This document shows positions 2,622 to 11,257 of a DNA stretch of 11,808 nucleotides, piece by piece; the stretch's first letter is position 1; every line of letters begins with the position of its first letter. Both the position numbers and the translations under genes were made by a program. A model generated the notes under the pieces. It did not search any database and had not been told where the DNA came from. It worked only from the letters and a program-made list of their open reading frames with translations. The DNA is taken from contig JALGVI010000093.1 in NCBI GenBank assembly GCA_029838215.1, forward strand, positions 1 through 11,808, given 5' to 3'. Source of the DNA: Candidatus Helarchaeota archaeon (GTDB lineage: Archaea; Asgardarchaeota; Lokiarchaeia; Helarchaeales; RDOG01).

Positions 2622-5600
2622 TCAACTTATCATGTATGATTCTAATTCTGCGAAACTTGTTTCTTCGCGTCCTTTACTTTGTATATAATAACGAATTTCC
2701 TTCTCTTCGTATGGAGGGAGTGCTTGGATGTTAAAGGAGATACTCAAGGCGTTCTCTTCTTTATCCTCTGAAGTTGAATATTTCAGGTTTGAAGAAACAA
2801 TTTCAAAATTTTTAGGCAACGAATCCGTGATGTTTACATCTTTCACGTCAATATTTGACTTGTTGTTAACCAATATGCTTATGGCAAATTCGTTGACGGA
2901 TCTGCCTGGGAAGATTTCCTTGCTGATTTCGATGGAACGTCTCTTGTGTATTATCATTAATTCGGGTTCTTCCTCTTGAGACAATTCGTGCTTGACCGTG
3001 ATGAAACCATCTATGACCATTCCATCACGAGATTCAGGGTAATATGAATTAATCTTGAGTGGAAAATGATATTTCTTTTTATAATCGGGTTTTATTGCCT
3101 TTATTGGATACTTGATTTCAATGCTTTCATTTGCTTTCAAGAAAAGGTCCGGATCCAATTTTTTAAGATTCAAGAGAATTTCAACTCGGTGTTCAATCGT
3201 GGGATCATCATCAGGTGGAGATACCCTGAGCTCAAAATTCTTTGTATAAGGAAGACCCGTTGAAAGCCGAATCTGGTATTGTGAAGGATCTAGGACAGGA
3301 GCAAAATCAATAGGTAAGGTTTCTTCGATTATTAGACCCGCCAAAGTGGCAGAACCAACATTTTTCACCATTACAGAATTACCGATTTCTGCTTCTTCAA
3401 AAGAATTAATTTCCGTTTTTAAGAATTTTTTCTCTAATTGAAAATCTACAATATCAAAAACATCTTCGCCAATCATCGAATTTATGATAGACCGTTTCTT
3501 AATTTCGTGCGTGATTGTATAATTCAACTTGCGAAGAAACCTCGGTTCGCTTTCATCCTCAACTTCCCATGAATCTGTTGCGAAATTCTCGCCCGGCAAA
3601 AGGATTTTTCTTTTATTCTGGTCCGTGAAATCGACGTCAAGGTATGTTTGAGTTTTGGATTTATTTAAGACTGTTATTCTTTTTAATTCCATGTTAAATT
3701 CGCTATTATTCTTGAAATTTAAGGAACATTCCCATTTATTTGGTTCTGTTTCCTTTTCTTTTTTCTTTATGGCATGTCTAACATGTGAAAAGGCAGAGCA
3801 TTGCTCAATTTTCGTGCCCGATAACGTGTCATTCTTTAGGATGCACGAAAGTTCAATCTCTCCTGTACCAATAAGTTCTTTCTTCTTGGGAAATACTTTA
3901 ACGAAAATGTTGAGTTGCTTTTCTTCATTAGGTCTTATGGCAGGAATCGACCAAATTACTCTTTCAGATTCATATTTAAAATCTAAATTATATCCTGAAT
4001 TACCCTCAAATTCATAAAACTCTTTTGAAAAATGTTTCGATAGTGTGACTTCTTCGATCATTGAAGCAGACCGATTCTTCAGTATTATGGTGTATTTTAA
4101 AAGATTTTCCCTGTTAAAAATGAGTATATTTTTAGTCTTAGGAATTTTTCCAGATGCTCTCTTAGCTTCTTCCTCTTCCCGTGCTTTCTTGATATCGTCA
4201 TCGATCTTGATGAGATTTTTTATTCTAAACACATAATCTGTCAGACCTGCATCTTTAGGAACTTGCTTGATTAATTTTTTATTAGAAACAAGAAGCTCAA
4301 TTAATGACATGTACCACTTTTCGATTTCGGCATTATACCGTTCAATTTTTTCTAGCCATTCTTCGATGGCTTGAGCTCGTGTATTAGCATTCAATTTCTG
4401 AAGTTTCTCCAAGCTTTCCGTTAATTCCCCTTCTGGATTTTTAATTTTTCCTGAGAAATACTTTGTCAAGATGGTCTTGTACCAATTTACATGATTGATG
4501 ATCATGCTATCTTTTGGAATGGCATCTTCTCGTGCGTATCGTAATTTTGACTCGACTTTTACGGCTTTTTTAAGGGATTCTTCTTTTTGTTTCCGTAATT
4601 CTTCTTCCTTTTTCTGTAAGAGTTCTTTTTCTTTTCGTAACTCTTCTTCTTTTTTGTAAATTTCCTTCTCTTTTTCCTTTATTTCTGTTTCTTGCTTATC
4701 CAACTTTTCTTTTTGTTTTGATAGCGTTTCTTTGAGTTTTTGTAAACCGCCTTCTATCTTTTGAATTTCTTTTTGTTTCTTGAGTCCCTTTTGTCTGCTC
4801 ATTTCTTCCTGTTTGAATATGGCATCTTTTTGAATTTTTAACGTATTTTTCAGTTCACGAATCTTTTGGTCCCGTTCTTTGACTTCTTTTTCCGACTTCA
4901 TTATATTTTGATTTATATCTTTGATTTCTGCATTTATTTTTTCAATTCTATCCTGAATGTTTTTTACTGCATCTTTGAGCTTTTTATTCTTCTCATCTTC
5001 TTCAAGTTCTTGATTCTTCTGTTTCAAAAGTTGTTTTTCCTGCTTTAATGCCTGTTCTTTCTGTTTCCTTACATCTTTCTGTTTTATGATCTCCGACTTG
5101 ACCTGATCACGTTTTTCTTCTTTTTTCTGTATCTCTTTTTCTTGTATTGCAAATTCTTCTCGTTTTTTCAATCCTTCTTTCTTGATTTTTTCATCTTGTT
5201 CGCGAATACTTTTTTGATTTTTGAGCTCACGTTCCCTTCTTTCCTCTTCTTGTTCGATTGCTTCTTCCTGATTTTTAATTTTTTCCAAAGCCTTCCTGGC
5301 TTTTTCTTTCTGAATCAAGAGTTTCTCTTTTTGTTTTCGCAAGGTATCTTCATTTTTACGGACTTTATCCATTTGGTTTAAAAATTCTTCTTCTTCAGGA
5401 GTAAGAGATGATTTTTTGGATGATTTTTTCTTTATGGCGAGAATTTTTAAAGGACGTAAGGCGCTATCCCCTGAAACTTGTTCTGAAACGACCTTAGTTT
5501 CCTCTAAATCAAATATAGCGTGTTTTATTATGAGCTTAAGGAGCTCACCCCTACTATTTAACTCTATTTTATCATATTCTTGGATGAGCTCGTTAATAAC

Positions 5601-6284
5601 ACCTGTTACTTTTGTGGTATTTGTCTTTAAACCTCGTTGAACCATCTTTTTCTCTTGAACGGTTAGAGACTCAATTTTTTCCACTTTTTCTCTTGCAGGA
5701 GAATTAGTTAATTTGAAAATTTGATCTATGGCTGTTTGGAATCCCGGTTCCAAAATCCACTTTCTAGCTTTCTCTCTCCAGTCTAATTTCTGCTTTTCGG
5801 GTTCCCTGAATAGATCCTCCTGACTGATATAATCAAATTCTCGATTTAGAAATTCTATTTTTTCCGAAACCGAGATTGGATCTTGCAAGTCCTCTGTTTT
5901 AACCAAATTATAATCCAAATTCTTACTCGTGTTTGGCTCCAAGTTGCCAATTTTTACATTTTCGCCCAATTTTAAATCAACGTTTTCATTTCCCGTGAAA
6001 GTGATGTTGGTATCCCAAATGCGATCTTTTCTTGACCCATTTACGATCCGAATAAAACCCGTTCCTTTAATTTCGGATTTCTTTCCATCTTTGTAATGCT
6101 TGAAATTAATTGCTTCTTCAACAAACAGTTGTAGGTTCGTGGATTTTTCGATGATTTCGGATGTTTTAAATTGTTCCACCGAAACCTTTTCATCCATTTT
6201 AACTGAAGTTTTGAGAGGCATTCCTAAAATATTAGGAGAAAGACTTAATTCCAATTCTTCATGATTGATACGCTTGAAACCCAT
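2622..6284 (-). CDS. Large modular protein: split mu-homology-domain-like beta-sandwich, central long coiled coil, C-terminal Ig/DUF11-like beta-sandwich domains
   Basis: 1220-aa ORF with SD GGAGTGA 6 nt upstream. aa ~49-147 and ~717-835 align by eye, in order, to the two parts of the adaptin mu C-terminal domain (LFVEEAIN..DG......G; EP....LDYNL....P.SV; LKYTIILK; SERVIWSI....EEKQL; TLSGTKI). aa ~298-582 is K/E/Q-rich coiled coil. aa ~946-1205 carries KNVGSATLAGLIIEETLP and NKSNIDVKDVNITDSLP strand motifs. CDS is certain; fold assignment is moderate. Confidence 0.65.
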   Translation of the reverse strand: MGFKRINHEELELSLSPNILGMPLKTSVKMDEKVSVEQFKTSEIIEKSTNLQLFVEEAINFKHYKDGKKSEIKGTGFIRIVNGSRKDRIWDTNITFTGNENVDLKLGENVKIGNLEPNTSKNLDYNLVKTEDLQDPISVSEKIEFLNREFDYISQEDLFREPEKQKLDWREKARKWILEPGFQTAIDQIFKLTNSPAREKVEKIESLTVQEKKMVQRGLKTNTTKVTGVINELIQEYDKIELNSRGELLKLIIKHAIFDLEETKVVSEQVSGDSALRPLKILAIKKKSSKKSSLTPEEEEFLNQMDKVRKNEDTLRKQKEKLLIQKEKARKALEKIKNQEEAIEQEEERRERELKNQKSIREQDEKIKKEGLKKREEFAIQEKEIQKKEEKRDQVKSEIIKQKDVRKQKEQALKQEKQLLKQKNQELEEDEKNKKLKDAVKNIQDRIEKINAEIKDINQNIMKSEKEVKERDQKIRELKNTLKIQKDAIFKQEEMSRQKGLKKQKEIQKIEGGLQKLKETLSKQKEKLDKQETEIKEKEKEIYKKEEELRKEKELLQKKEEELRKQKEESLKKAVKVESKLRYAREDAIPKDSMIINHVNWYKTILTKYFSGKIKNPEGELTESLEKLQKLNANTRAQAIEEWLEKIERYNAEIEKWYMSLIELLVSNKKLIKQVPKDAGLTDYVFRIKNLIKIDDDIKKAREEEEAKRASGKIPKTKNILIFNRENLLKYTIILKNRSASMIEEVTLSKHFSKEFYEFEGNSGYNLDFKYESERVIWSIPAIRPNEEKQLNIFVKVFPKKKELIGTGEIELSCILKNDTLSGTKIEQCSAFSHVRHAIKKKEKETEPNKWECSLNFKNNSEFNMELKRITVLNKSKTQTYLDVDFTDQNKRKILLPGENFATDSWEVEDESEPRFLRKLNYTITHEIKKRSIINSMIGEDVFDIVDFQLEKKFLKTEINSFEEAEIGNSVMVKNVGSATLAGLIIEETLPIDFAPVLDPSQYQIRLSTGLPYTKNFELRVSPPDDDPTIEHRVEILLNLKKLDPDLFLKANESIEIKYPIKAIKPDYKKKYHFPLKINSYYPESRDGMVIDGFITVKHELSQEEEPELMIIHKRRSIEISKEIFPGRSVNEFAISILVNNKSNIDVKDVNITDSLPKNFEIVSSNLKYSTSEDKEENALSISFNIQALPPYEEKEIRYYIQSKGREETSFAELESYMIS
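4581..4655 (-). repeat. Imperfect 42-nt (14-aa) tandem duplication in the coiled coil (KKEEELRK twice)
   Basis: aa 544-551 and 558-565 are identical (KKEEELRK). The DNA copies differ at synonymous sites. The period equals two heptads. Confidence 0.75.
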
Positions 6285-6337: not shown

Positions 6338-8431
6338 TTAAGTGCTAATTTCTTCAACTTGTAAATTTTCGGTTTTTCGGAGTCTTTGGGACATTATTCC
6401 CAAAACATCAATTATCAAACATATGGAGCCATCTCCCGTAATTGTAACGCCCGAAATGCCCCTTAATCTGGAAAATTTCGAGGCAATTGGTTTGATTACG
6501 ACTTCCATCTGCTGTTTTAATCCATCTACGACCAAGATTGCATCGTTATTTCTTCCATTATTACACCAGATCGCTATTTTCGATGTTCCTTGCAATTCGG
6601 ACTCTTCATTTGATTGGTTACTCAACTCAAATATCTTATTCAACCAAATAACGGGAACTAATTTGTTGGACACTTTATAAAATTCGCTACCCTTCACGTA
6701 TTCTATCATTTTCCGATCAAAGAATGAAATTTTGTTGATATTTTCAGTCGGAATGGCGAAAAGATCTCCTGCCACGTCCACGAATTGTGCCTTAATTATT
6801 GCTCTAGTAAATGGAACTGATAAAATGAATCGTGAACCCACATCTTTTTTTGACATGATGGTCAAGGAACCACCCAAGTCACGTATCTTTTCGGAAACGA
6901 TTGCCAGTCCCATGCCCCGACCTGAAACCATGTCTACACCTGATAGCGTCGAGAAACCAGGAGACAACAATATTTGATGAAGAGCCTCATTGCTTAATTC
7001 CATTGCTTCTTCAAGTGAAAACAATTCTTGTTCGACAATCTTGTTTCGGATATCGTCGTAATTAATTCCTCTTCCGTCATCTTCTACTTCTATGAATACA
7101 GACCCCGCTTGTTGAAATGTTCTTAGTCTCACGATTCCCATGGGGTCCTTTCCTTTTTTCTTTCGCACGCTTGGGGTTTCTATCCCATGATAAATGGCGT
7201 TTCGGAGGAGATGTAGCATTGGTGATGAAAGTTCTTCCAGAATCTTCCGATCCAACTCTACAGATAATCCTTCTAAAATAAATTCTACTTGTTTTCCGTA
7301 TTCTTTCGCAAGATCACGTACCATTCTTCGATATCTTCTGAATGTAGACCCAACTTTCACTAATTTCAATTGAAAAATGATCTCTTGGATTTCGAGAAAC
7401 AACTTATCCATTTTCGTAAAAAGCCTGTTCGCATCCCAAAGTTGTTTTTCTTCAAGAATTTGATTAACCTGATTTTTTAAGATTATTAATTCTCCGAAGT
7501 AATTCATCAACCGTTCCAGAACTTCAATATCCACCTTAATGTCTGAAATTCTTTCGTCATCGTCGATACTGCTCATTCTTACACTGGTATTTGTCATGAA
7601 TTCTTCTTGAATGGAAAGGTCACTAAATTGACTCTTACCTGTTGCTTCGGATTTCCGTGATTTCGGTTCTTTTTTCTGATATTTCTGCATGTTCGTTTGA
7701 GATAATAGTTGATCGGGCGATGTTTCTGTAATGGCGAGGTTTTCAATTTCCAAGATTTCTTCTAATATGGTCGCAATGGTCTTGTCATCTTTTTCCGTAA
7801 TGAAGTATAATGAAAAGTCTGAACCATATTCTCCCATTTGCAGGATATCGGGATCGGGTTCACTATAGATGATATGGCCGATCTCGTTTAATGCTCTTAA
7901 AATGATGAATAATCTTACTTTTTTAAACACGCAAGTAGAGAGAATTTTGATATAAATCTTGTAGAACTTCTTATTTTTCTTATTTGCGATGAACTTTAAT
8001 TCATTTGGATCGAGAGGGGTTATCAATGCCTCTTCATCTTCGATCTCGAAATTATCAAACGCTTTTTTGGTGTTATTTAGTAATTCTTCATCCAAATCTT
8101 TAAAATTACCCTTCTTGAATTGTTTCAGCTTCGTGCGAAGCGTATCAAGGCTTGAAAATAATAAATTCACGAAATCTTCGGATTTTTCCTTTAATTCTTC
8201 ACTTTCTTTTGCCTTGTTTAGAAACGTTTCAAAGTGATGGCAAAACTGGGAGAGATTTTCGAGTCCAAACATCCCAGTCAACCCTTTTAACGTGTGAAAC
8301 GCAAAGAACAATTCATTTACAGCTTTAATATTTCCTGCACTTTCTTCAAAAGCCAAAATGGAGTCCTCTATATTTTGAATTAGGTCTTCAGTTTCGCTCA
8401 AGAAGAGTTTTGTATCTTCCTTACTAGGCAT
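6338..8431 (-). CDS. cheA: Chemotaxis histidine kinase CheA (P1-P2-P3-P4-P5)
   Basis: HPt motif FHTLKG (H46), P2-like segment, dimerisation IKVDIEVLERLMNYFGELII, N-box HLLRNAIYHG, G1 EDDGRGI, F/G2 PGFST..SGRGMG, C-terminal CheW-like domain ending GVTITGDGSICLIIDV. SD GGGGT 8 nt upstream. Confidence 0.97.
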   Translation of the reverse strand: MPSKEDTKLFLSETEDLIQNIEDSILAFEESAGNIKAVNELFFAFHTLKGLTGMFGLENLSQFCHHFETFLNKAKESEELKEKSEDFVNLLFSSLDTLRTKLKQFKKGNFKDLDEELLNNTKKAFDNFEIEDEEALITPLDPNELKFIANKKNKKFYKIYIKILSTCVFKKVRLFIILRALNEIGHIIYSEPDPDILQMGEYGSDFSLYFITEKDDKTIATILEEILEIENLAITETSPDQLLSQTNMQKYQKKEPKSRKSEATGKSQFSDLSIQEEFMTNTSVRMSSIDDDERISDIKVDIEVLERLMNYFGELIILKNQVNQILEEKQLWDANRLFTKMDKLFLEIQEIIFQLKLVKVGSTFRRYRRMVRDLAKEYGKQVEFILEGLSVELDRKILEELSSPMLHLLRNAIYHGIETPSVRKKKGKDPMGIVRLRTFQQAGSVFIEVEDDGRGINYDDIRNKIVEQELFSLEEAMELSNEALHQILLSPGFSTLSGVDMVSGRGMGLAIVSEKIRDLGGSLTIMSKKDVGSRFILSVPFTRAIIKAQFVDVAGDLFAIPTENINKISFFDRKMIEYVKGSEFYKVSNKLVPVIWLNKIFELSNQSNEESELQGTSKIAIWCNNGRNNDAILVVDGLKQQMEVVIKPIASKFSRLRGISGVTITGDGSICLIIDVLGIMSQRLRKTENLQVEEIST

Positions 8432-8462: not shown

Positions 8463-8858
8463 TTATTTTTTACCTTTTTTTGATGGTTTCATTAAATTGC
8501 GGTCGATAACTTCAAAAATTTGTTCGTCCTTAAATGGTTTGATGATAAAGTCTTTTGCTCCTTTTTTTGCAGCCTCCATTACGAGCGTTTCTTGACCCAA
8601 TGCCGAAACCACGACAATTTTCGCGCTTTTATCAAGCTCAATGATTTTCTCGATTGTTTCAATACCACCCTTTTCAGGCATGACTAGATCCATCGTTACA
8701 AGGTCTGGTTTCAGTTTCATGTATTGAGCAATGGCTTCATTGCCGTTGGCGGCTTCTCCAACGACTTCGACTTTATCGATCTTTTTAATTATATTTTTGA
8801 GCATTGTTCTCGTGAACTGTGCATCATCTACGACTAAAATTTTTTTAATTTCTGCCAT
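8463..8858 (-). CDS. cheY: Chemotaxis response regulator CheY (stand-alone receiver domain)
   Basis: ILVVDD, phospho-acceptor in VTMDLVMP (D57), VSALG, FIIKPF all intact; located between cheW and cheA. Confidence 0.96.
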   Translation of the reverse strand: MAEIKKILVVDDAQFTRTMLKNIIKKIDKVEVVGEAANGNEAIAQYMKLKPDLVTMDLVMPEKGGIETIEKIIELDKSAKIVVVSALGQETLVMEAAKKGAKDFIIKPFKDEQIFEVIDRNLMKPSKKGKK

Positions 8859-8881: not shown

Positions 8882-9412
8882 TTAAAGTTGGTGAATCAGA
8901 TCATCCTGCATTGAATTTTGCTCGGCTTCGGTAAGGATTTTTTTCAAATCCAGCCAAATTCGTGGATTATCCTTGAATTTCACGATTCCTCTAATATATC
9001 GAGCATCCGCACTCGTACGAATAATGGGATTCAGTCCAACGATGTCATTTACGCTGACGTGAACAACGTTAATGATCCGATCGACAAGAAACCCAACGTT
9101 TATTCCATTAACGGTAACTATGATGATGTGTTGTTTTATATTCTCATCATTTGAATCCGCAGATTCCTTAATTTTAACTTTTTTATGCTCATCGAGCTTT
9201 AATTTCTTGTTTAAATTTAAAACATGAACTATTTCTCCCCGATAATTGAAAATTCCATCAATATAATCCAAGCTTTGTGGAAGTTTTCTGATTTGCCCTG
9301 CGAGAACGATTTCCTTGGCGTCGTGAAGATCAATTGCAAATTGTTCACCATTAACTTCCATTAGTATCAGGGAGATTTGATTTCGCGTTTCATTCAATAT
9401 TTCTTGAGACAT
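8882..9412 (-). CDS. cheW: Chemotaxis coupling protein CheW
   Basis: FAIDLHDAKEI, LPQSLDYIDGIFNYRGEIVHVLNL, VGFLVDRIINV, YIRGIVKFKDNPRIWLDLKKIL are canonical CheW motifs. SD-like AAGGAAGTG 5 nt upstream. Confidence 0.96.
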   Translation of the reverse strand: MSQEILNETRNQISLILMEVNGEQFAIDLHDAKEIVLAGQIRKLPQSLDYIDGIFNYRGEIVHVLNLNKKLKLDEHKKVKIKESADSNDENIKQHIIIVTVNGINVGFLVDRIINVVHVSVNDIVGLNPIIRTSADARYIRGIVKFKDNPRIWLDLKKILTEAEQNSMQDDLIHQL

Positions 9413-9435: not shown

Positions 9436-10272
9436 TTAAATTTTGAAATATTGTTCTAAAATATCATCAAATGAATCAAATACGGCAACATCGCCGAAAA
9501 AATTTTCAATTTCTTCCTTGAATTTTTCTATGAATAAATCTGCCACGTAATACATGTATCTTTTAAGTAAAGGGGTTAATTTACAAACTAAATATACAAA
9601 AATGATTTCTTTTTTTACAACTGTATAAAAAATATGGTTTCCAAAATTGATTTCCTTGAGTTTTGCTCCCGTGTCTTTTCCAATTATTTGTTCGGACATG
9701 GAAAAAATGGCGGAGATAAAACCTGCAATCAATGGTTCATCAACTTCGTTCACTAAAGTCCTCGAAAAGAATGGTATTCCCGTTTTACTGAGGATGTAAA
9801 TGGCCTTGACACCACCAATGCGAGGAACTATTATCGTTTCCTCACAAAAATCTCGAATTTTCGATAGCGAAGAATTCGCACGAAAAAGACTGCGTATTTT
9901 TCTTGCATGGAGATATAATCGGGAATAATCCCCCGTATCTCCTTTATCAAACATGTAAATGGCTATTAATTTTTCACCTTCTGAATTCTCAAAATAATTC
10001 ACGTATATGGTGAAATTGTCCAGGGGAATGAAAGAAATCTTGTGGTCATCGGACTTGAATTCTTGCTTGAAGAGTTCCAAGATGTTCTGAATCATGGGAA
10101 TGTCAATTCCTTTTTGAAATACCACGTTGAATCCTTTCGTAAAATTTGGTAACAAGATTTTTACCAATCCAAACCCCATGACTTCTAAAGTTCTTCCAAA
10201 CTTGGAAACCGTCTTCATCAATCCTTCTGTTTCGTGAATTTTATTTGTACTTGCCATTTTTTTCGACTCCAA
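9436..10272 (-). CDS. Longin-domain protein, probably two tandem longin-like domains
   Basis: aa 153-278 (VKAIYILSKTGIPFFSR...DEPLIAGFISAIFSMSEQI...LKEINFG...IIFVYLV...F..EIENF.GD...FDSFDDIL..YF) follows the sigma/mu-adaptin and Asgard longin pattern. aa ~29-150 has a predicted beta-beta-alpha-beta-beta-beta-alpha-alpha order compatible with a second longin. True start may be ATG 10257 (GGAG 10 nt upstream) rather than TTG 10272. Confidence 0.75.
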   Translation of the reverse strand: MESKKMASTNKIHETEGLMKTVSKFGRTLEVMGFGLVKILLPNFTKGFNVVFQKGIDIPMIQNILELFKQEFKSDDHKISFIPLDNFTIYVNYFENSEGEKLIAIYMFDKGDTGDYSRLYLHARKIRSLFRANSSLSKIRDFCEETIIVPRIGGVKAIYILSKTGIPFFSRTLVNEVDEPLIAGFISAIFSMSEQIIGKDTGAKLKEINFGNHIFYTVVKKEIIFVYLVCKLTPLLKRYMYYVADLFIEKFKEEIENFFGDVAVFDSFDDILEQYFKI

Positions 10273-10357: not shown

Positions 10358-11257
10358 TCAGGATTTCCCTTTGGCATCATCTTCTTTTTCGAGACGTAGT
10401 GTTGATTTTAGATTCTCTGCCAATTCACTTAAACGACTTGCTGTTGCCGTAATTTCTTCCATTGATGCCGTTTGTTCTTCCGCTGAAGAACTGATTTCTT
10501 CCATTGCCGCAGACGTTTCTTGACTTGAGGATAACGCACCTTCAAGATCGGTTGTAATACCACTGATTAATTCCACCGTTTGTTCTATTCGGGTAATGAC
10601 ATCATAAACTCTCGAACTAGATTTAAGAACTGTTGATTTGGATTCTTCTGCGATGCTCGCGTTAAGAGCCAATAAATTCGTCTGTTCCGCAATATTTGTT
10701 ATGACTTCCATGACACCGCGTATGTTGTCCGTAGAAACCTTGACTTCCGTTGATAATGCATTGATTTGAGCCGCCGCCGCGCTAATGTCCGTCAACGATT
10801 TGACTTGGTCTTGGGTACTTGCTGAAACCTCTTGAGTTGTTTGTGAGATTTCCTCTGCTGAAGCATTTACTTCATTTGCACTAGCTGCCAACTCTGCTGC
10901 CATATTTGCAACACTAACGCTTGCATCCTGTCCAGCCATTACAACTGTAGATATTTTTTTCTTAAAGTTTCTAACCAGCTTAATTATTAACCAAATTGCG
11001 ACAATTATGAAGCCAACTCCCGGTGGAATCGTAATTATCGTGACAAATAAGTCATTATGCATCGTGCCAACATCAAAGATGACAAGGACAACTAAGATTG
11101 CTATTGCTGCTAACATTCCTGCTGCAATTTTAAATTCTTCAGATTTATAATCTCTTCCTAAAACAAAGTAAAAAACCAAAATCAGGAGCGGGATAAAGAT
11201 AGCCACTAATATGTAAGTGAAGCTAGGATCAAGATATAGTTGCAAATTACTCACCAT
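10358..11257 (-). CDS. Methyl-accepting chemotaxis protein with 3 predicted TM helices and an in-frame loss of the conserved hairpin tip (possible decoy or pseudogene)
   Basis: Hydrophobic segments at aa ~13-33, 43-61, 70-94. MCP motifs ELAASANEVNASAEEI, IAEQTNLLALNASI and EEQTASMEEITATA are present, but NASI joins directly to AEES with the usual EAxRAGExGRGFAVVAxEVRxL missing. Confidence 0.85.
   Translation of the reverse strand: MVSNLQLYLDPSFTYILVAIFIPLLILVFYFVLGRDYKSEEFKIAAGMLAAIAILVVLVIFDVGTMHNDLFVTIITIPPGVGFIIVAIWLIIKLVRNFKKKISTVVMAGQDASVSVANMAAELAASANEVNASAEEISQTTQEVSASTQDQVKSLTDISAAAAQINALSTEVKVSTDNIRGVMEVITNIAEQTNLLALNASIAEESKSTVLKSSSRVYDVITRIEQTVELISGITTDLEGALSSSQETSAAMEEISSSAEEQTASMEEITATASRLSELAENLKSTLRLEKEDDAKGKS

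Follow-up and report, generated by a model that had tools for sequence, protein, structure and literature searches.

A predicted mu-homology-domain protein with an optional helical stalk in a chemotaxis operon of Lokiarchaeial Asgard archaea

How a chemotaxis (che) pathway could elicit a response without an archaellum is the question raised by the locus described here. The locus lies in a stretch of 11,808 nucleotides (the window) that spans positions 1 to 11,808 of contig JALGVI010000093.1 (assembly GCA_029838215.1) from Candidatus Helarchaeota archaeon, a Loki-type Asgard archaeon. At least nine genes lie on the minus strand (-) of the window. Directly after cheA, as had been noted in an initial annotation of this sequence, stands an open reading frame (ORF) at 2622-6284 (-) that is real and encodes a soluble protein of 1220 amino acids (aa), followed by a stop codon. 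It begins 53 nt past the stop of cheA (6338-8431, -) and ends 25 nt ahead of a gene for a protein of 292 aa. Here, we show that this protein is, by its predicted structure, a member of the Asgard mu-homology-domain (MHD) family, the fold known from the mu subunits of the eukaryotic adaptor complexes, that its MHD is interrupted by a helical insert which most orthologues lack, and that its gene is a fixed member of one type of Lokiarchaeial chemotaxis operon. The MHD gene is one of four lineage-specific genes fixed in that operon, and the predicted fold of its product is the one with which eukaryotic coats recognize cargo and partners. If this product receives the che signal, a direct test would be open for how prokaryotic sensing is coupled to cytoskeletal or membrane machinery of eukaryote-like type.

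We have modelled aa 1-960, insert included, with AlphaFold2 (AF2); the result is a predicted and not a solved structure, with a pLDDT of about 85-93 in the beta parts. VIA-align superimposed residues 47 to 940 of the model on residues 168 to 435 of AP-2 mu2 with Z 17.4 and an rmsd of 2.7 Å over 227 of 250 residues, where the tool's own note puts the usual best Z at 7-8 when a model lacks a clear match. The top 50 chains listed for the window model are all MHDs, namely AP-1 to AP-4 mu, delta-COP and SGIP1. The adaptor mu chains (for mu2 PDB 6BNT, 5WRK, 2BP5 and 1BW8), delta-COP (4O8Q) and SGIP1 (5AWT) share the fold with Z values of 14-17 over about 215-230 residues. Because a single superposition covers both flanks of the insert, aa 46-147 and aa 718-940 are one MHD in the model. 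The initial annotation had already joined two shorter pieces, aa 49-147 and 717-835, into one domain, and the residue pairs that it had matched to mu2 by eye agree with the alignments. In the prediction the protein has the two beta-sandwich subdomains, the second nested in the first, by which the MHD fold is recognized. In place of a construct with the insert deleted we folded a natural orthologue without insert, P0018 (19-sequence alignment). Its AF2 model (pLDDT 81.6) superimposes with residues 49 to 392 on mu2 168 to 435 (VIA-align, Z 15.9, rmsd 2.8 Å, 229 of 250 residues), and its VIA-align ranking is headed by AP-1 to AP-4 mu and delta-COP, with pilins following at about 135 aligned residues. 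A Foldseek comparison with MHD structures, proposed earlier as a check, was run on the P0018 and window models and gave mu2 matches. P0018 matched the C-terminal domains of mu2 adaptin (E about 5e-10, TMt 0.6-0.7), and the insert-bearing model matched mu2 in its post-insert part only, over about 110 columns with an rmsd of 1.9-2.9 Å. Foldseek did not span the insert, and VIA-align was needed to bridge it.

The model also redraws the map of the protein, all of whose parts are given here with minus-strand coordinates. The first part of MHD subdomain A (aa 46-147, 5844-6149) has six strands and the motif NxSxKDRIWD; residue 47 of the model falls on mu2 168. After the helical insert follows subdomain B (aa 718 to about 826, 3807-4133), whose downstream boundary is approximate and within which Pfam places DUF11 at aa 724-803. 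The returning part of subdomain A (aa ~827-940, 3465-3806) carries the motif AxSHxxHAIxxxEKETEPNxWxC and is delimited by the alignment to mu2 435. The split around the insert had been predicted correctly, and the end set at aa 835 had not, as the structural alignment runs to aa 940. Since the MHD extends that far, the first of three further beta-sandwich domains postulated before is the returning part of subdomain A, and two follow rather than three. These are a fourth beta-sandwich region (aa ~941-1115, 2940-3464), placed from the secondary structure of the P0018 model and matched by pilin and adhesin Ig-like chains in the P0018 structural alignment list, and a C-terminal beta-sandwich of DUF11 type (aa ~1116-1220, 2625-2939; Pfam DUF11, TIGR01451). 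The returning part holds a further motif, S-H-x-x-H...C (aa 833-853, 3726-3788, -), in which S833, H834 and H837 are invariant and C853 is kept in at least 90% of the che-linked subfamily; both histidines are not kept in the paralogues. This motif, which lies where the chain goes back from subdomain B into A, could be a metal or partner site.

The link to the family at the level of sequence runs through paralogues. The C-terminal 504 aa of the window protein match four paralogues of the same genome with E values from 2e-42 to 8e-28, and these paralogues (590-707 aa) share the architecture of an MHD plus two domains. Paralogue L003 (707 aa; E 4e-38 to the C-terminal 504 aa) scores 45.9 bits against the Pfam family PF00928 (Adap_comp_sub; E 6e-12), above the threshold of 31.6 bits, and its match (aa 174-333) starts before the insert site and continues through subdomain B. 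Below the threshold, P0063 (30.6 bits, aa 119-330) and L004 (26.9 bits, aa 12-227) have PF00928 matches that take in both sides of the insert site more fully. A paralogue profile with inserts excluded, run against the PDB sequences, found AP-1 mu1 at E 0.02 among weak AP mu matches (E 0.02-0.5) and aligned the subdomain B part of the window protein with subdomain B of AP-1 mu1 and AP-3 mu. A family profile that included the long forms matched coiled-coil proteins only (SMC, myosin). Weak sequence signals to mu2 lie in subdomain B and at the first strand, where E57 and G76 take the positions of mu2 E179 and G198.

The same sequence searches offer a different reading, in which the likeness to MHDs is a chance array of Ig-like (DUF11) domains without shared descent and the insert a variable linker between independent domains. 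Pfam and NCBIfam searches of the whole protein, its N-terminal unit and the insert returned only DUF11/TIGR01451, at aa 724-803 and ~1137-1190, so that DUF11 is all that Pfam sees in the window protein; taken by itself, the N-terminal unit has weak matches (E about 1e-5) to Ig repeats in proteins unrelated to it, and multi-Ig proteins such as integrins and pilins are also in the Foldseek list. However, those multi-Ig matches reach a TM of about 0.1-0.2 or about 135 aligned residues only, whereas one rigid superposition takes in both sides of the insert with 227 of 250 mu2 residues at 2.7 Å. L003, moreover, passes the curated PF00928 threshold, the sub-threshold matches of P0063 and L004 span both sides, and the same family is listed among the PF00928 candidates of Eme et al. 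2023 (PMC10307638). We therefore hold a chance array to be very improbable.

Asgard MHD proteins as such are already known. In Supplementary Table 3 and the supplementary text, Eme et al. list 44 Asgard PF00928 candidates, describe the domain in Asgard archaea as not fused to a longin-type domain, and give an example with the motifs SxKNRIW and PxxWxC (PMC10307638). The che-linked subfamily differs from these candidates in being too diverged for Pfam, in having its own MGFK peptide and an insertion site filled with 19-970 aa, and in its fixed place after cheA. Its signature motifs do not occur in the supplement text of that study, one file of which was partial. Our literature searches turned up no account of che operons that contain an MHD protein, of an MHD with an insert, or of a che-linked, stalk-bearing subfamily.

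Compared with its eukaryotic relatives the window protein is without the N-terminal longin domain (Clat_adaptor_s) of the AP mu subunits and delta-COP; a peptide of 45 aa with low confidence precedes the MHD instead. It has about 100 extra residues in the returning part of subdomain A when compared with mu2, and two more Ig-like domains after the MHD than eukaryotic MHD proteins. The AP and COPI relatives belong with coat subunits, whereas this gene sits in a chemotaxis operon. Genes for AP large (beta, gamma/alpha) and sigma subunits are absent from the window; the genome itself was not searched for them. The pocket of mu2 for YxxPhi signals, which we take to consist of F174, D176, K203 and R423, appears altered. 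In approximate alignments, which are not residue-level structural ones (the start of the VIA-align range, with 47 on mu2 168, the weak profile alignment and the earlier match by eye), Phe54 stands at D176, in line with the replacement read from the sequence earlier, and Val81 at K203. The column equivalent to D176 is mostly hydrophobic in the aligned family members, holds Arg, Asn or Lys in three, and is never Asp.

The insert (aa 148-717, 570 aa; 4134-5843, -) was delimited with alignment A1 and is all-helical in the AF2 model, with two disordered breaks. Its site falls near position 112 of the PF00928 profile, which has 259 positions, when the Pfam coordinates of P0063 and L004 are interpolated via alignment A3; on this mapping the strand KYTIILKN just past it corresponds to the first strand of subdomain B. 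The paralogue-profile alignment to AP-1 mu1 and AP-3 mu covers the remainder of subdomain B and agrees. We therefore place the insert at about the crossover from subdomain A to B, near mu2 279-283, a placement that combines the interpolated coordinates with a weak profile alignment and uses the subdomain boundaries of the 1998 mu2 structure. The earlier description of a helical insertion of about 570 aa that splits the MHD holds; its assignment to a beta-hairpin loop gives way to the crossover. We know of no eukaryotic MHD with an insert at this position. An MHD that carries an optional stalk of 0-970 aa at one fixed crossover is an unusual natural domain insertion, and the family provides a natural set of length variants for structural work.

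How the stalk is built can be read in outline from the topology. The paralogues span the insert site with about 7 residues (alignment A3), which obliges the two ends of the insert to be neighbours in the fold and its helices to run out and back. AF2 predicts helices at aa 162-265, 296-429 (134 residues), 435-579 (145 residues) and 594-709. The distal helix 1 (aa 296-429, 4998-5399, -) is 60-75% charged. It is followed by a predicted hairpin turn of sequence DEKNK (aa 430-434, 4983-4997, -), the sole helix break between aa 296 and 579, and by distal helix 2 (aa 435-579, 4548-4982, -), in which a/d heptad positions are fully occupied in aa 435-476. Two flexible breaks, aa 266-295 (5400-5489, -) and aa 580-593 (4506-4547, -), separate these arms from the base. 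The segments with pLDDT<50 (259-294 and 575-600) mirror each other about the turn at aa 432, as would be expected of an antiparallel hairpin with a joint. The stalk is thus most likely an antiparallel helical hairpin, whose arms of about 134 and 145 residues meet at the turn (aa 430-434) and stand on a shorter helical base with joints; we estimate the predicted distal hairpin at about 20 nm and the whole stalk at no more than about 35 nm. A helical excursion out of a globular fold and back, such as is predicted here, is also found in the arms of SMC and Rad50, in the arm of seryl-tRNA synthetase and in the chemoreceptor hairpin, and a jointed break at mirrored positions of both arms would be a further trait in common with such long coiled-coil arms. 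There is no sequence relation to any of these arms beyond coiled-coil composition. Unlike them, the stalk described here is optional, its sequence is not conserved among orthologues, and it is largely charge-rich like a single alpha-helix.

Two other origins of the insert were considered and rejected. An intein or mobile insert is contradicted by the absence of such motifs and by an insert that is helical and in frame in many species, and an assembly artefact by long forms present in many independent metagenome-assembled genomes (MAGs).

The orthologues, all from MAGs of Promethearchaeota or other Asgard archaea, are 38-45% identical over the C-terminal 521 aa. Homologues range from 660 to 1618 aa; conservation covers the N-terminal unit (aa 1-147) and the last 500 aa, and the insert measured either 19-37 aa or 315-970 aa in the homologues compared. 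Insert-less orthologues of about 660-690 aa form the majority, close to the ~650 aa that had been anticipated. A suggested restriction of the insert to che-linked copies, by contrast, fails as a distinguishing mark: the orthologous group is entirely che-linked, yet most of its members have no insert. At the loci of 31 other species we counted 23 short forms, one intermediate and seven long forms. A blastp search with the window insert gave no significant similarity to other inserts, and when the insert DNA was searched for tandem repeats, it yielded only short arrays of low score. In a tree from which the insert columns had been left out, the che-linked proteins are one clade against the paralogues, the distribution of long and short forms demands at least five changes of state, and P0035, the nearest relative of the window protein, is without insert. 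A single clade of long forms is rejected by the AU test (p 7e-5; the group was named after the tree had been seen). Because of these changes of state and the AU test, the insert site can be regarded as a hot spot at which a stalk was gained, lost or resized repeatedly. The stalk is an optional, fast-evolving accessory and not the core of the function.

In the longest inserts (P0010 and P0020, 717-970 aa) tandem units of about 100 aa recur with the motif (E)EFDPQI...ESKL...EQxxLD, which is not in the window insert. This pattern suggests that the stalk grew by tandem duplication in P0010 and P0020.

We surveyed the genomic context in 200 sampled Asgard genomes, and a scan of species representatives yielded the loci of 31 other species, whose neighbours were identified by tblastn. 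Clear orthologues occurred in five genomes of the sample, and in all five cheA was the next gene upstream and the 292-aa gene the next one downstream. At the species' loci both neighbours stood in the same direct positions in 29 of 29 assessable cases each. CheA was present in 24 of 201 genomes, and the five CheAs at least 49% identical to that of the window belong to exactly the five carriers of an orthologue. The recurrent order is the gene for a 278-aa protein, cheW, cheY, cheA, the MHD gene, the 292-aa gene, a cheW-cheC fusion and gelsolin, the last of these in 24 loci. As an operon type the order reads roadblock/longin-like gene, cheW, cheY, cheA, MHD gene, 292-aa gene, cheW-cheC, cheC, gelsolin. 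The paralogues are located on other contigs, not beside cheA, and have no insert. Operon location and co-occurrence with the core kinase both place the MHD protein in the che system.

The C-terminal domains match pilins and adhesins best in structure, and DUF11 repeats are a typical feature of surface proteins in archaea and bacteria, which raises the idea of a secreted or surface adhesin that only happens to lie next to cheA. When we examined the sequence of the window protein, neither a signal peptide nor a membrane segment was found; the highest mean Kyte-Doolittle value over 19 residues is 1.25. By its sequence the protein is predicted to be cytoplasmic, and we have rejected secretion for want of a signal peptide. 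The N-terminus is conserved and non-hydrophobic, the gene order is the same in 29 of 29 loci, and the presence of the gene tracks one CheA type. A surface adhesin is hardly credible on this evidence.

Partners and function we infer from the fold, topology, family relation, insert variability and synteny, each obtained computationally. With somewhat better than even confidence we propose that the window protein is a soluble interaction platform of the MHD family in this Lokiarchaeial che pathway, with the stalk as an accessory. The MHD surface and the N-terminal peptide would tie the CheA/CheY core to lineage-specific partners, and the stalk would serve as a spacer or reach element. The MHD protein is a candidate for the missing output of a che system without a detectable swimming motor. 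Searches for CheF (PF04283) and archaellin (PF01917) came up empty in the window genome and in four relatives (90-97% complete) but gave matches in control genomes. The role of a coat, or of a link from the chemosensory array to membrane or cytoskeleton, had been suggested from the start and is conjectural; it would draw only on conserved gene order (gelsolin and a roadblock/longin-like gene) and on this failure to find CheF and archaellin.

Several points weigh against the platform and its hairpin stalk. PF00928 does not match the window protein or its segments even at E<=10 (threshold 31.6 bits); because of this, its membership in the family is established via the predicted structure and the chain of paralogues. 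The overall pTM of the insert-bearing model is only 0.42. The geometry of the hairpin, and with it the packing of the helices, is deduced from topology and AF2 secondary structure. The central arms are 60-75% charged and poor in heptads except at aa 435-476, and could be single alpha-helices or be paired between subunits. The stalk is dispensable in most species and therefore cannot be central to function. Finally, gene order is association, not mechanism.

The place of the gene between cheA and cheW-cheC in every locus is also what would be expected of a structural element of the chemoreceptor array, with the MHD and Ig-like domains on the CheA/CheW baseplate and the stalk beside the receptors or as an array spacer. 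Chemoreceptor signalling hairpins are similar in size range to the distal arms of 134 and 145 aa. Putative chemoreceptor arrays, together with che genes, have been put forward in Ca. L. ossiferum (PMC9834061). However, the inserts share no sequence with each other or with a receptor motif, and profile matches to chains of methyl-accepting chemotaxis proteins (MCPs) sit among generic coiled-coil matches (SMC, myosin). Since most orthologues are without a stalk, receptor-like packing is not a conserved role. An array element is accordingly improbable in our view.

For the interaction platform a more specific form can be formulated from the N-terminal peptide. This peptide (aa 1-28, 6201-6284, -; MGFKxIxxxELETxLSPxFLGxPLK) is predicted to be disordered (pLDDT 30-50) and is the most conserved linear motif of the che-linked subfamily. 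In alignment A1, with its 14 sequences, M1, F3, K4, G21 and P23 do not vary, and a start of MGFK type is common to about 55 family members. A motif scan of the genome found no second protein with an MGFK N-terminus. The N-terminus of E. coli FliM (K-12 record), MGDSILSQAEIDALL, resembles the conserved start in register. M1 G2... I6... E10 L11 E12.. L15 in the family faces M1 G2... L6 S7 Q8. E10 I11 D12. L14 L15 in FliM, the short forms have ISQTEL where FliM has LSQAEI, and the likeness extends to about 7 of 15 positions. On these grounds the MHD protein could receive phosphorylated CheY (CheY-P) and act as an output switch, with CheY-P docking on the FliM-like peptide and the MHD and Ig-like domains handing it on to regulators of the membrane or of actin. 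A pattern written from both sequences, after both had been seen, occurs in the window protein only, among 2749 long ORFs of the genome. The cheY gene lies two genes upstream, its product is closest to CheY of T. maritima (E 5e-37), and CheF was not found. Against such a switch it counts that the pattern was written post hoc and that short amphipathic motifs recur by chance, that FliM L14 and the D/N position are not kept, that an NCBIfam profile search with aa 1-48 gave no match, and that the SPxFLGxPLK half of the peptide has no FliM counterpart. The place of a CheY-P output would be shared with FliM and CheF, whereas the window protein has no FliM, FliN or CheF domain. We regard a CheY-P receiver as doubtful; it would sharpen the platform reading and does not contradict it.

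Asgard archaea crawl by an actin-dependent mechanism, in a report that does not mention chemotaxis (PMC13716822). It is tempting to speculate that the MHD protein serves as output adaptor of an archaellum-less Asgard che pathway, with CheY-P on the FliM-like peptide and the MHD acting on operon partners, an idea that we put forward as tentative and rather unlikely. The platform would then act on gelsolin, the roadblock/longin-like protein and the 292-aa protein and so steer actin-driven crawling or membrane remodelling. If true, a prokaryotic two-component pathway would be wired to eukaryotic-signature machinery via an adaptin fold.

The other genes listed for the window are also encoded on the minus strand. 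Upstream of the MHD gene (2622-6284, -) the order starts with an MCP-like gene (10358-11257, -), whose product has hydrophobic N-terminal segments and a short signalling domain that Pfam matched in two separate stretches. The gene for the 278-aa protein (9436-10272, -) is followed by cheW (8882-9412, -), cheY (8463-8858, -) and cheA, whose product has five domains (Hpt, P2, dimerisation, HATPase and CheW-like). Downstream are the 292-aa gene (1718-2596, -), the cheW-cheC fusion (361-1683, -) and, at the edge of the window, a gelsolin-like ORF (3-395, -), which was counted in related loci.

The 292-aa protein gave no match in Pfam or NCBIfam. Its C-terminal half contains the D...ExK-like string VDFIIENKDGS, and the ESM Atlas returned nothing above 0.86, with clusters of PDDEXK_3, HSDR_N_2 and MunI type as weak leads at 0.83-0.85. 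It may be that a nuclease-like fold was turned to partner use in this protein. The 278-aa gene precedes cheW in 25 of the loci of the 31 species, and the C-terminal part of its product, some 120 aa, is a member of a very large family of paralogues in the relatives, with 7-17 matches per genome. In the ESM Atlas this protein falls with unnamed Asgard clusters, and the nearest named ones, Roadblock/LAMTOR2 and Fuz_longin at 0.80-0.82, are a lead only.

Single loci depart from the common layout. On the closed chromosome CP070831.1 (L025) cheY, cheA, the MHD gene and the 292-aa gene are kept, and searches with the window proteins over 10 kb detected neither the 278-aa gene nor cheW-cheC nor gelsolin; the operon may be present there in a trimmed form. 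The MAGs of five operon loci (L011, L016, L018, L023 and L032) carry the labels Hodarchaeota, Hermodarchaeota, Odinarchaeota or Bathyarchaeota, a sign of wrong labels or wrong binning, or else of operon transfer. Outside the che context, the MHD paralogues L003 and L004 are each arranged tail to tail with an ORF of 444-457 aa that matched no Pfam family (L003:3053-4387, L004:3021-4394). Relatives have, after the cheW-cheC fusion, a second cheC that stands alone (for example G168:C393:2452-3084); in the window its place is at or beyond the left edge.

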